A DNA stretch of 64,000 nt, from the NCBI RefSeq assembly GCF_006345805.1, contig NC_042997.1, positions 31,372,001 through 31,436,000 of the forward strand, in the 5' to 3' direction. This document shows positions 1 through 62,957 of the stretch, piece after piece. Under the pieces are notes generated by a model. That model ran no database searches. It saw nothing but the letters and a program-made list of their open reading frames with translations, and was not told the DNA's origin. The stretch comes from Octopus sinensis. Taxonomy: Eukaryota. A program made the translations under genes and the position numbers. Numbering within the stretch: the first letter of the stretch is position 1; every line of letters begins with the position of its first letter.

Positions 1-146
1 TTCCCTTTTACGATCCCTCTTGATCGAAAACCTACGCCACCCCTTTTTTTTGTTTCTTTTTTTTGTGTTTTTTTCATCCCCAAAAGAAAAGCTCTACCTT
101 GTAACTGTCCCATCTGTGTGCAGCCCTGTGTGGCCAATAAAGAAAC
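1..146 (+). mobile_element. 3' UTR/terminus of Tx1-clade LINE (second subfamily), running into (TATC)n
   Basis: Ends ...AAAAGAAAAGCTCTACCTTGTAACTGTCCCATCTGTGTGCAGCCCTGTGTGGCCAATAAAGAAAC then TATC repeats; homologous to the 3' ends of the ORF-bearing copies at 4098-5152 and 61833-62957. Confidence 0.85.
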
Positions 147-3380: not shown

Positions 3381-3565
3381 GTTTCTTTATTAGCCACACT
3401 GGGCTGCACACAGATAGAACAAATTACAAGGTAGAGCTTTTCTTGAAGGTTAAAAAAAAAAAAAAAAAAAAAAAAAGGGGGAGTTTCGATCAAAAGGTGA
3501 TCGTAAAGGGAGAAAGAGGACCCAAAAAAGGGGAGTTAAAAAAAAAAAAAAAAAGGGGGAGAGGA
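3381..3565 (-). mobile_element. 5'-truncated Tx1-clade LINE 3' end with a 10-bp TSD
   Basis: Reverse complement of the 3' UTR of the long copies; flanked by direct repeat GTGTATATAT at 3371-3380 and 3566-3575. Confidence 0.9.
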
Positions 3566-3656: not shown

Positions 3657-4097
3657 TAGAAAGGCAGAGAAAATGAGTGTGTGAAGGAAGGAATGTATGT
3701 ATATGTCAAACACCTAAGTAGTAAAACACCGAGGCTGTTATAGAATTTCCAGAATGTTCCCAGATGGAACAGTTAATATGGTAAGTTCCAGTTACAACAC
3801 AAGAATCAGATTGTATCTATTATATCACAGACGTATCCTTAGTTTTTTTTACTTCTTTTCTTTCCTTATGTTTTTCTGAATCCTTTCTATCTTTTTCTCC
3901 CCCATTTTGCTTCCTCCCCTACACATATTTTAACTCTCTCTCTCTGTCAGTCTGTCTGTTGCTGACCCTTTCCCTACATAACTATCTGTATATTTTTATC
4001 AGACCTTTCTTTTTTCTGACATAGCAATCTCTTTGTTTCTGTCTCTCCGTCTCTCTCTCTCTCTCACGTTATCAAGTGCTATCTATCTATCTATCTA

Positions 4098-5152
4098 TCT
4101 GCCGTCCTGGGTCGACCTTGAGTGACTTCAACACAACCAAAGCATTCTATAGGGGTTTAGTGGAGGGGAGGTACGACGACGAGCTCGGGGCGAACCTGGA
4201 CGTCGACGAGGAGTGCCTGACCCGCCTGTTCAGGACGACTTTCGGGCCAGGGCCCATGGACAACTTCCAGAGATCCCTGGCCTGGCAGTGCTACCGAGAA
4301 GCGCTACCCGTTCGGGATAAGCTCTACAGACACGGCTCGAGAAACACGGGGCCGACCTGCCGAGATGCGGTCAGAGCGACGAAACCGTTCTGCACGCACT
4401 CGTGCAGTGTCCAACAATTCCGACCTGTGGGCTTATGTCGAACAACTGCTGTCACGTGTGGGACGAGTCGGTTTATCAGCTTTGTCTATCGTCAATATTG
4501 TCACGCCTCCTTCCTTCAAACGGGAAGGAAGAGCTATTTTCATCATCCTTGTGGCTATGGCGAAAGAATGTATCTGGTGGACGCGTCTGAAAGGATTGAG
4601 ACAAACACTTTCCTCTCTGGTCAATCTCTCATCAACTTCTTCAAGTACCACTTGAAAAGGGAAGTGAGAGTAGAGAGGCAAGTTTTGTCTAGCGAATGTT
4701 TTAAAAAAAGATGGGTGAATGTAGCAAGAATGGCACGTATGAATGACGAAGCCACCTTGAGCATGATCCTATGAACCCAGAAATTGAAAACAGAGAGTTG
4801 CTTATTCGCAAAAAAAAAAACAAAAAAAAAACATGTAACTCCATTGACCGAGGTTACCGTGGTCTTTTCCGTAGGCTTTTCTTTCCACGGGTAAACCTCA
4901 CCTGTCCTCCCCTTTACACTTCATATTGACATTTCTGTGATAACGATCCCTATTGATCAATTTTTTTTTCCTCTCCCCCCTTTTTTTTAACCCCCGTTTT
5001 TTTTGTCCTCTTTCTCTCCTTTTACGATCCCCTTTGATCGAAACTCCCCCTTCCTTTTTTTTTTAAAAAATTTTTTTTAAACCTTCAAAAGAAAAGCTCT
5101 ACCTTGTAATTTGTTCTATCTGTGTGCAACCCTGTGTGGCTAATAAAGAAAC
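4098..5152 (+). mobile_element. 5'-truncated Tx1/L1-clade non-LTR retrotransposon (ORF2 C-terminus with zinc knuckle + 3' UTR) in (TATC)n
   Basis: Near-identical to 61833-62957; ORF2 remnant stops at 4774 and has three 1-bp deletions relative to the other copy; TATC repeats on both sides; ends AATAAAGAAAC with no poly(A). Confidence 0.9.
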
Positions 5153-45837: not shown

Positions 45838-46326
45838 GAAGATAGAGAATCGTGAGCAAGAGGAGAGAGAGAGAGAGAGAGAGAGAGGGGGAAGAATGGT
45901 GGAGAGAGATGGAAAAAGAAAGAGAGCAGGAGAGTGTGCAAAAGGCACTATATAAGTAAACATGTTTGTTACATTTTCTATGGAATTGCTGTTGGTATAT
46001 ATTTATAAAAATATTGCATTGTTTACATTGATTCACAGAGAAAGGACTGTGTGCAGAATCCAGTTTTTAATTAAGTTATAGTTAACATGTTAAATGTAGA
46101 GACCTCCGAAAAGTTTATTAAAAATGAATATGCGGAGAGAAAAGAAAAGATAAACTCATTAACTCAGTGCCTAACTTTATTTCGGTTATTTCGATAAAAT
46201 ACATGAGACAACTTCCAGGTTTTATATTTTTTTAAAACTCATCTGCAAAGCATAGACTTTACTGTATTTACCAAAGTAATCACGAGAGAATCATCGTCTA
46301 TTCTCGGGCAATATGTTCAATATTGT

Positions 46327-47075
46327 AAGGCGGCGAGCTGGCAGAAACGTTAGCACGCCGGACGAAATGCCTAGCGGTATTTCGCCTGCCGTTACGTTGT
46401 GAGTTCAAATTCCGCCGAGGTCGACTTCGCCTTTCATCCTTTCGGGGTCGATAAATTAAGTACCAGTTACGCACTGGGGTCGATGTAATCGACTTAATCC
46501 GTTTGTCTGTCTTTGTCCCCTCTGTGTTTAGCCCTTGTGAGTAGTAAAGAAATAGGTATTTCGTCTGCCGCTACGTTCTGAGTTCAAATTCTGCGAGGTC
46601 GACTTCGCCTTTCATCCTTTCGGGGTCGATTAAATAAGTATCGGTTACGCACTGGAGTCGATATAATCGACTTAATCCGTTTGTCTGTCCTTGTTTGTCC
46701 CCTCTGTGTTTAGCTCCTTGTGGGTAGTAAAGAAATAGGTATTTCGTCTGCCGTTACGTTCTGCGTTCAAATTCCGCCGAGGTCGACTTTGTCTTTCATC
46801 CTTTCGGGGTCGATTAAATAAGTACCAGTTACTCACTGGGGTCGATATAATCGTCTTAATCCGCTTGTCTGTCCTTATTTGTTCCTTCTGTGTTTAGCTC
46901 CTTGTGGGTAGTAAAGAAATATGTATTTCGTCTGTCTTTATGTTCTGTGTTCAAATTCCGCCGATGTCGACTTTGCTTTTCATCCTTTTGTGTACCAGTT
47001 GCGTACTGGATCGATCTAATCTACTGGCCTCCTCCCCTCAAATTCCGGGCATTGTGCTTAGAGTAGAAAAGAATA
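46327..47075 (+). mobile_element. Head-to-tail SINE family C array (one head, four bodies) inside one 12-bp TSD
   Basis: Units start at GTATTTCG near 46376, 46555, 46738 and 46922; the first three end GTAGTAAAGAAATA (tail i), the last ends GAGTAGAAAAGAATA (tail ii); AATATGTTCAAT at 46310-46321 and 47072-47083. Confidence 0.9.
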
Positions 47076-47083
47076 TGTTCAAT

Positions 47084-49485: not shown

Positions 49486-49709
49486 TTTTTTTTTACTACC
49501 CACAATGGGCTAAACACAGAGGGAACAAACAAGGACAGACAAACGGATTAAGTCGATTACATCGACCCCAGTGCGTCACTGGTACTTAATTCATCGACCC
49601 CGAAAGGATGAAAGACAAAGTCGACCTCGGCGGAATTTGAACCCAGAACGCAACGGCTGACGAAATACGGCTACGCATTTCGGCCAGCGTCCTAACGTTT
49701 CTGCCAGCA
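49486..49709 (-). mobile_element. SINE family C (tail type i), solitary
   Basis: TTTACTACCCACAATGGGCTAAACACAGAGGGAACAAACAAGGACAGACAAACGGATTAAGTCG...CTAACGTTTCTGCCAGC. Confidence 0.9.
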
Positions 49710-58149: not shown

Positions 58150-58560
58150 CGTCAGATTTTTGTTTTCACGGAATGCATTGTATAGAGATATTGCACCATG
58201 TTTTCCAAAAGCTTTGGTGATACTCAAGGTCAAATCACCTAGAAAATTCAGCAGACCTTTGGTGATGATGCCACGGGCAAAACTCAGATAAAGAATTGAT
58301 ATAACCTCAGTGGAGAGCGACACACGTTCAGACAGGTCATCTACAAGCCAAAACAAGGAACCGATTCAGAAGGTTTGGCGAATAGTCATGGCTGGCCGTC
58401 GTGTAAAAATCAAGGAAATTGCTCACAAACTGGGAACAAGATCAGGATCAGTGCATTCCATTTTAACGGAGGATTTTTGTATGCGGACTGTGTCGGCGAA
58501 ATTCCTTCCCAAGGCAACTCCACATAGAAATCGTTCAGGACATGCTGGACTGTGCAAACC
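58150..58560 (+). mobile_element. Decayed mariner transposase fragment
   Basis: ESDTRSDRSSTS..KVWRIVMAGRRVKIKEIAHKLG..SGSVHSILTEDFCMRTVSAKFLPK (second HTH and WVPK-like linker). Confidence 0.8.
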
Positions 58561-58626
58561 TTTTGAAGCACATTGTTCTGTTCGTCGAATCAATTGGAAC
58601 TCTTGTCGTCGTGACCGACGGAATGC

Positions 58627-61832: not shown

Positions 61833-62751
61833 CGCGAGTGTCGCGTTGCTCTCAAGCAACTCTGCCGTCCTGGGTCGACCTTAAGTGACTTCAACACAAC
61901 CAAAGCATTCTATAGGGGTTTAGTGGAGGGGAGGTACGACGACGAGCTCGGGGCGAACCTGGACGTCGACGAGGAGTACCTGACCCGCCTGTTCGGGACG
62001 ACTTTCGGGCCAGGGCCCATGGACAACTTCCAGAGATCCCTGGCCTGGCAGTGCTACCGAGAAGCGCTACCCGTTCGGGATAAGCTCTACAGACACGGCT
62101 CGAGAAACACGGGGCCGACCTGCCCGAGATGCGGTCAGAGCGACGAAACCGTTCTGCACGCACTCGTTCAGTGTCCAACAATTTCTGACCTGTGGGCTTA
62201 TGTCGAACAACTGCTGTCACGTGTGGGACGAGTCGGTTTATCAGCTGAGTCTATCGTCAATATTGTCACGCCTCCTTCCTTCAAACGGGAAGGAAGAGCT
62301 ATTTTCATCATCCTTGTGGCTATGGCGAAAGAATGTATCTGGTGGACGCGTCTGAAAGGATTGGAGACAAACACTTTCCTCTCTGGTCAATCTCTCATCA
62401 ACTTCTTCAAGTACCACTTGAAAAGGAAAGTGAGAGTAGAGAGGCAAGTTTTGTCTAGCGAATGTTTTAAAAAAAGATGGGTGAATGTAGCAAGAATGGC
62501 ACGTATGAATGACGAAGCCACCTTGAGCATAGTCCTATGAACCCAGAAATTGAAAACAGAGAGTTGCTTATTTGCAAAAAAAAAAAAAAAAAAAAAAAAA
62601 AGAAATATAAAATATGACTTCATTGACCGAGGTTACCGTGGTCTTTTCCGCAGGCTTTTCTTTCCACGGGTAAACCTCACCTGTCCTCCCCTTTACACTT
62701 CATATTGACATTTCTGTGATAACGATCCCTATTGATCATTTTTTTTCCTCT

Positions 62752-62790
<39 letters not shown>

Positions 62791-62849
62791 CCCCTTATTT
62801 TTGTCCTCTTTCTCTCCTTTACGATCCCTTTTGATCGAACCTCCCTCTT

Positions 62850-62886
<37 letters not shown>

Positions 62887-62957
62887 CCTTCAAAAGAAAA
62901 GCTCTACCTTGTAATTTGTTCTATCTGTGTGCAGCCCTGTGTGGCTAATAAAGAAAC
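61833..62957 (+). mobile_element. 5'-truncated Tx1/L1-clade non-LTR retrotransposon inside a long (TATC)n array
   Basis: Open ORF2 C-terminus to the stop at 62540 with zf-RVT-type CPRCGQSDETVLHALVQCP, LAWQCYREALPVRDKL, AKECIWWTR and FKKRW, typical of Tx1/L1 ORF2; about 200 bp of TATC on each side; no poly(A). Confidence 0.92.

Follow-up and report, generated by a model that had tools for sequence, protein, structure and literature searches.

Stringent SINE/LINE pairs are defined by common 3' tails with hairpins, and the LINEs of the L1 group are the textbook exception, their RNA being recognized by its poly(A). A SINE array in the genome of Octopus sinensis carries a tail that resembles the 3' terminus of Tx1-like LINEs of that group, and the question raised by this locus is which LINE supplied the tail and which one copies the SINE. 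The window analyzed is the whole stretch of 64,000 nucleotides (NC_042997.1, positions 31,372,001 to 31,436,000), and coordinates given without a prefix refer to it.

A SINE array with one head and two kinds of tail

The array (46327-47075, forward strand) is built head to tail from 184-bp units and holds three copies with the tail in question, tail i, as internal units (46500-46921). Its single head (46327-46375) contains an A-box-like motif and runs up to an insertion site, TAGC^GGTATTTCG (46375/46376). Unit 1 (46376-46554) follows with a B-box-like motif (46401-46413), the core, and tail i (46501-46552) plus TA. Three units without a head come after it: unit 2 (46555-46737, tail i at 46678-46735), unit 3 (46738-46921, tail i at 46863-46919), and unit 4 (46922-47075), which ends in a different, unrelated tail, tail ii (47023-47075). 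The units are 91.6 to 93.8% alike, and the whole array is bracketed by a 12-bp direct repeat (46310-46321 and 47072-47083), a candidate target-site duplication (TSD). A solo tail-i copy lies on the reverse strand at 49488-49708. By eye, the head motifs resemble A and B boxes, and ARAGORN and Rfam returned no tRNA match for the head; the element is probably a tRNA-type SINE, and it is very abundant.

Since tail ii closes the array, a different LINE may have driven the most recent move. The 12-bp repeat fits a single move by read-through and re-copying, or it may date from the first insertion. Tail ii occurs in at least three variants in the window copy and other copies, and inspection of 68 tail-ii matches in the sampled sequence for an upstream LINE gave no partner.

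The tail matches LINE termini within the window

The earlier note had aligned the SINE tail with the LINE end at 106-145 at about 33 of 40 columns, with a common end point. The tail of unit 1 agrees with that LINE end at 32 of 40 columns (blastn, 80% identity, E = 0.001 within the window), and both stop at AAAGAAA. The note had also proposed a shuffled control, and here each of the nine pairings of the three tail-i copies with three LINE ends of the window scored above all 5,000 mononucleotide shuffles.

A genuine LINE lies behind the end at 106-145: 763 bp of its ORF2 (amino acids 797 to 1051) are found just left of the window and are 89 to 96% identical to a family that inserts into TATC runs (the TATC family), and the element is internally deleted before the 3' untranslated region (UTR). 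The terminus itself (98-145, forward strand) is followed by a TATC run. The same family is represented in the window by a 5'-truncated 3' end inside a TATC run (959-1006, forward), a terminus on the reverse strand (3382-3423), a degraded copy with a C-terminal ORF2 remnant and 3' UTR (4097-5151, forward), and a young, 5'-truncated LINE (61833-62956, forward) that has the zf-RVT C terminus of ORF2 (61833-62537), the 3' UTR and the terminus, with TATC runs on both sides. Fragments at 2429-2590 and 58292-58600 resemble Tc1/mariner transposases by their motifs. The last ~60 bases of the SINE are homologous to the termini of Tx1-like LINEs, not only to that of the LINE at 106-145, and an L1/Tx1-group origin of the tail is well supported.

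A radiation of Tx1-like LINEs shares a hairpin terminus

The TATC-family ORF2 is 1,145 amino acids long with endonuclease, reverse transcriptase (RT) and zf-RVT regions. Pfam places Exo_endo_phos, RVT_1 and zf-RVT in the ORF2 of this family and of a second one, H, which has an ORF2 of 1,134 amino acids and was recovered in a sister-family search; it also places zf-CCHC in the ORF1 of H. The closest solved structure to ORF2 is human L1 ORF2p (E = 1.5e-64, versus 1.7e-20 for R2). An N-terminal AP endonuclease (APE), an RT, a C-terminal zinc motif and an upstream ORF1 mark these elements as L1-group non-LTR retrotransposons. Insertion into a specific target sequence, a trait of the Tx1 clade, is present in both families (30/30 TATC-family copies and 29/29 H copies), and all 30 TATC-family copies read end in a TATC run (CATATCT...) without poly(A). 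We call these LINEs "Tx1-like" for their architecture and target specificity, as homologue searches with the LINE proteins recovered no named Tx1 element; the named homologues come from Argonauta and Octopus.

To sample such LINEs, searches with zf-RVT and two sister families, together with extra genome stretches, were used to collect 135 ORF2 ends. A terminus was detectable in 106 of these, and the 29 others were dropped; the ends formed 30 clusters, and removal of four frameshifted duplicates left 26 family representatives, which are an incomplete sample. All 26 (APE, RT and zf-RVT) have a TGTCC box, a variable middle and a AATAAAGAAA-like end without poly(A). The motif itself served to find the ends, so part of its conservation is built in, whereas the hairpin played no role in finding them. 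The terminus is kept across families that are only 45 to 60% identical in protein. The SINE tail, which the earlier note aligned with one Tx1 terminus, is homologous to the 3' terminus of this set of Tx1-like L1-group LINEs.

A hairpin of 3 to 7 bp forms in 26/26 representatives within a fixed window (-28 to -9), and its stem pairs vary between families with compensatory changes. The summed minimum free energy of the 26 hairpins was -101, compared with a mean of -35.6 for shuffles and -55.3 for the best of 500 shuffles; singly, the signal is weak, since just 10 of the 26 reach p < 0.05, 59% of shuffles also fold something, and the families are related. The hairpin type of the SINE, GCCC-5nt-GGGY, is found in a clade (support 99/96) of H, F15, F17, F03, F08 and F09, and the sister of this clade is the TATC family. 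The earlier note proposed folding both tails in search of a common stem-loop. All of the LINE termini fold a hairpin, whereas the whole tails of the window SINEs fold no better than shuffles (z from -0.9 to +1.4), and mutations have damaged the hairpin in the three window tail-i copies. A single SINE with an H-type hairpin (L247/L319; L319:1490-1720, reverse strand; one match genome-wide) could reflect a template switch or three point mutations. We do not count it as evidence, because with copies in the tens of thousands, three substitutions could by themselves produce one SINE of this kind.

Family F07 (loci L167 to L170) is young, intact and Tx1-like, and the A-rich end of its terminus is changed; at least two of four copies have a 3' end that continues into the head of another tRNA-type SINE, with the same 7- to 13-nt start in all four. 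Two Tx1-type termini (L218:500-973 and L216:6452-6485) lack ORF2 upstream; the one at L218, in which a short run rich in purines precedes the UTR, may represent an element with ORF1 only.

The whole tail is absent from every sampled family

Among the 26 sampled families, none contains the whole SINE tail. Its 5' half is near-exact in F12, F22 and F07, and its 3' (hairpin) half is fitted best by F09, F17, F03 and F08, with H fitting too. By overall tail similarity, scored as the best of up to six members per cluster and so favoring large clusters, H stands 12th among the 26 over 70 nt and 6th over 36 nt, and the TATC family 14th and 8th. A single specific LINE partner, as proposed in the earlier note, is therefore not borne out by this sample: the halves match different families.

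A SINE-tail profile run over 1.16 Mb of Tx1-biased sequence returned 389 matches. In 271 of them the upstream sequence was the SINE core and in 97 a Tx1-like ORF2; the remaining 21 proved on inspection to comprise 13 SINEs with damage, 6 termini of the TATC family and 2 Tx1-like termini lacking ORF2. Within this 1.16 Mb, no LINE of another clade matched the tail better. A T-run-plus-tail pattern had 732 matches in the genome, and the 100 of these that were read were all SINE copies or truncations, with no exact-tail LINE and no other clade among them. The SINE and the Tx1-like LINEs share what a stringent pair shares, a common 3'-terminal sequence with the same end point, and the system appears to work like such a pair, but with no single whole-tail partner in the sample.

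The SINE is abundant and has a defined insertion signature

A search of the genome for a 32-nt tail pattern gave 76,874 exact matches, against none for its control. We presume that the SINE may well be one of the octopus elements OK, OR1 and OR2. Mean identity among 117 compared copies is 87.5%. Monomers end exactly at the tail terminus, and 34 of 47 headed monomers have a TSD of 9 to 22 bp, mostly about 13 to 18 bp, versus 138 of 2,070 mismatched pairs. The site consensus is RC^NNTA (purine at -2 in 19, C at -1 in 14, T at +3 in 19 and A at +4 in 17), drawn from 20 hand-picked sites with a clear register, 14 of the 34 TSD calls being omitted for unclear register. Flanks fall into a few classes (GGTA, TATA, GATA and AGTA/AGAA), and the RC^NNTA motif is found inside the SINE's own head as well, between the two promoter-box-like motifs. 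When the 98 tails listed first on contig 1 were followed outward, 33 ran into another SINE body, 65 ended elsewhere and none lay in a TATC run. A second self-junction, in which tail i leads into the head of a SINE at about +18 (AGAAACGTTAG), was seen at L064, L265, L266, L178, L339 and L128 and suggests a second internal landing site.

Family H inserts at the site where the SINE enters itself

Family H has intact ORF2s, and its copies are 98.8 to 99.5% alike. Genome-wide there are 132 exact H tail ends and 126 junctions of the tail with the SINE site (the two patterns are not nested). Thirty of these loci were read; 29 are LINE ends, and all 29 enter a SINE body at TAGC^SGTATTT, one of them after 7 extra nt, while the thirtieth is a SINE with an H-like hairpin. 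Full-length H copies have the same allele on both sides in 6/6 cases, with a TSD of 11 to 16 bp, and the alleles at the SINE site are C in 17 and G in 11. The SINE consensus RC^NNTA fits this site, and the insertion signature is shared: TSDs of mostly about 13 to 18 bp at RC^NNTA for the SINE and of 11 to 16 bp at GC^SGTA for H.

The SINE uses this site as well. Double-head SINE matches number 92 genome-wide, some of them within 65-bp tandem runs, and among 25 distinct double-head loci a tail-i copy is present in 22, an exact TSD of at least 9 bp in 14, and private variants on both sides in several. Full-length nested SINEs thus sit at the site of H with matching duplications. Separately, tandem runs of 65 to 67 bp composed of the SINE head and the TSD form a SINE-derived minisatellite at L322 to L328, C7:15322780-15323084 and C3430:1373-2212.

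These results lead us to suggest, with a probability of roughly 70%, that the ORF2 protein which copies the SINE comes from the branch with the same hairpin type and landing site (H, its older relatives or an unsampled sister) and not from the TATC family. The ORF2 protein would recognize the 3' element on the SINE RNA and prime reverse transcription of that RNA at the nick. Present-day H cannot have made most of the SINE copies because its copies are 98.8 to 99.5% alike, compared with a SINE mean of 87.5%; an older H subfamily exists, with UTR identity down to 82%. Against mobilization by the H branch, no sampled family has the whole tail, and H is strict for its site and uses both alleles, whereas the SINE is looser, rarely has C at its own site, and inserts elsewhere in 65 of 98 cases. 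Pairing of the RNA end with the target could explain a strict H and a loose, G-only SINE.

Arrays are probably re-copied read-through products for the most part

Exact tail-to-body junctions number 31,005 genome-wide. SINE-SINE junctions were TA|G in 62 cases and TA|C in 2. Of nine arrays with a C allele in the head, eight have G at the junction and none has C; arrays with a G head have junctions with G in 17, C in 1 and A in 1, and in a further 17 the head was unreadable. Headless insertion of the SINE into itself in place was considered and is rejected for most arrays, because the head and junction alleles would then agree, as they do for H, but they mismatch. The head of the window array has the G allele and is uninformative in this respect. 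Local tandem duplication is what some arrays look like (L292). Headed tail-ii copies numbered just 9, too few to tell the tail-i and tail-ii subfamilies apart by their heads.

The allele counts suggest that arrays like the one in the window are mostly re-copied read-through products. Transcription of nested copies would start at the new head and continue across the old body, and the read-through chain would be re-copied as one RNA, giving single-headed arrays such as 46327-47075. Taken further, an animal Tx1-type radiation would rely on a poly(A)-free, hairpin-based 3' recognition element, and one of its lineages would form a closed loop with a tRNA-type SINE: the SINE acquired the LINE tail, the LINE endonuclease cuts within the SINE head and so the LINE makes more targets for itself, and read-through of nested copies yields chains that are copied again. 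We judge this extended scheme to have about an even chance of being right.

Alternative partners

Sharing of the SINE by several families is the alternative that survives best, though we consider it unlikely. Recognition would be loose and act through the conserved terminus, the site classes would reflect different endonucleases, and the tail would be a mosaic compatible with many partners. The two tail halves do match different families, the flanks fall into few classes, the terminus is conserved across families with only 45 to 60% protein identity, and F07 lands in another SINE beside the spot of the tail-i copy L056. However, all of the site classes share RC^NNTA, as would be expected from one enzyme plus pairing of the RNA end, and recognition is evidently not universal, because the abundant TATC family has the terminus and yet left 0/98 SINE tails in TATC runs.

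It is less probable still that the tail is a captured Tx1-like relic that no longer directs copying and that the SINE spreads by way of another LINE, for instance the tail-ii partner acting on read-through multimers. In keeping with this, tail ii terminates the window array as well as 14 internal units, no living sampled family has the whole tail, and at L144:2129-2230 (reverse strand) an F17-type LINE 3' end is embedded in the core of a tail-ii SINE, immediately ahead of the tail, which offers a possible model for the capture of tail i. A relic tail sits poorly with monomers that finish precisely at the end of tail i and have TSDs of their own (34/47), with full-length tail-i copies at the site of H with matching TSDs, and with the presence of a tail-ii copy in just 1 of 25 double-head loci.

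Mobilization by the TATC family of the window itself is largely refuted and is very improbable. The family is young, abundant and very active (at least 150 copies at 99 to 100% protein identity and 33,840 candidates), and 32 of 40 terminal columns are common to the SINE tail. Its own copies, however, end in CATATCT... in 30 of 30 cases and the SINE tails in none of 98, its site TC^TATC departs from the SINE consensus at -2 and +4, and its tail similarity is only 14th of 26. The earlier note had named a relative of the TATC family as the probable driver, and these counts agree with a relative rather than the family itself. Chance similarity, or convergence between AT-rich ends that contain a polyadenylation signal, can be dismissed, for although AATAAA belongs to the match and the alignment covers just 40 to 50 nt, 0/5,000 shuffles reach its score and near-exact matches of 29 to 30 nt to F12, F22 and F07 lie upstream of the A-rich end.

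Relation to known SINE/LINE pairs

The earlier note had described the partners in stringent pairs as mostly CR1, L2 and RTE. That description leaves out stringent pairs of the L1 clade in maize and Chlamydomonas (PMC3472496) and a SINE mobilized by Tx1 in crocodilians (PMC4494074). The L1-clade tails reported in the portions of two papers that we drew on belong to only three SINEs, all plant or algal, from maize and Chlamydomonas (Ohshima 2012, PMC3472496; Ohshima 2013, PMC3747384). The pairs are maize ZmSINE2/3 with LINE1-1_ZM and Chlamydomonas SINEX-3_CR with L1-1_CR; as in the octopus, an L1-group LINE shares its conserved last ~45 nt with a tRNA-type SINE, and a hairpin with a variable stem has conserved flanks. 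The octopus elements differ in host and in being target specific and without poly(A). In the portion of the 58-pair table covered here (PMC3747384), there is no animal L1/Tx1 pair and no mollusc pair.

Mobilization of the crocodilian SINEU by Tx1-Mar was argued from target preference, age and common 5' heads (Kojima 2015, PMC4494074). The two systems are alike in that a SINE is tied to Tx1 LINEs by a common landing site inside a repeat, with tandem copies. SINEU, however, has U1/U2 snRNA-derived heads, a feature absent from the octopus SINE (an Rfam scan of its head gave no snRNA match), and lands in Mariner, whereas the octopus SINE has a tRNA-like head and a common 3' tail, and its target is the SINE itself. 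The target-specific Tx1 families Tx1L (in Tx1D), Keno, Kibi and Koshi resemble the octopus LINEs, by description, in their APE-RT-zinc-knuckle ORF2 and their specificity for microsatellites or repeats, and the parts of PMC4494074 used here describe no SINE with their 3' tail.

Among molluscs, bivalve pairs likewise join a SINE to a LINE-derived stem-loop tail, but their partner clades are CR1 and L2, whereas the octopus tail derives from the L1 group (PMC4824008). OK, OR1 and OR2 are abundant tRNA-derived SINEs of octopus (Ohshima and Okada 1994, cited in PMC4758252 and PMC4824008), and the passages that cite them leave the partner LINE unnamed. We found no published report of this SINE/LINE pair in paper searches outside Repbase, SINEBase and Ohshima and Okada 1994/2005; the passages of PMC4758252, PMC5786205 and PMC13282606 used here name none.

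If true, the existence in animals of Tx1-like LINEs that lack poly(A) and keep a conserved hairpin end, together with a SINE that has that end, would bear on whether strict recognition is an ancestral trait of the L1 group. It would also explain the spread and chaining of one of the commonest repeats in the genome (more than 76,000 exact tail matches). The intact ORF2s, which differ in stem and target, would lend themselves to a direct swap assay. In O. vulgaris, 13 recently active L1-Tx1 families have been listed (PMC13282606). In the genome studied here, Tx1-like copies are stacked at a spacing of 3.5 to 5.7 kb at C3:72.50-72.53 Mb, C9:76.60-76.62 Mb, C9:70.50-70.52 Mb and other places, and members of several families seem to have inserted into the 5' ends of other such elements.
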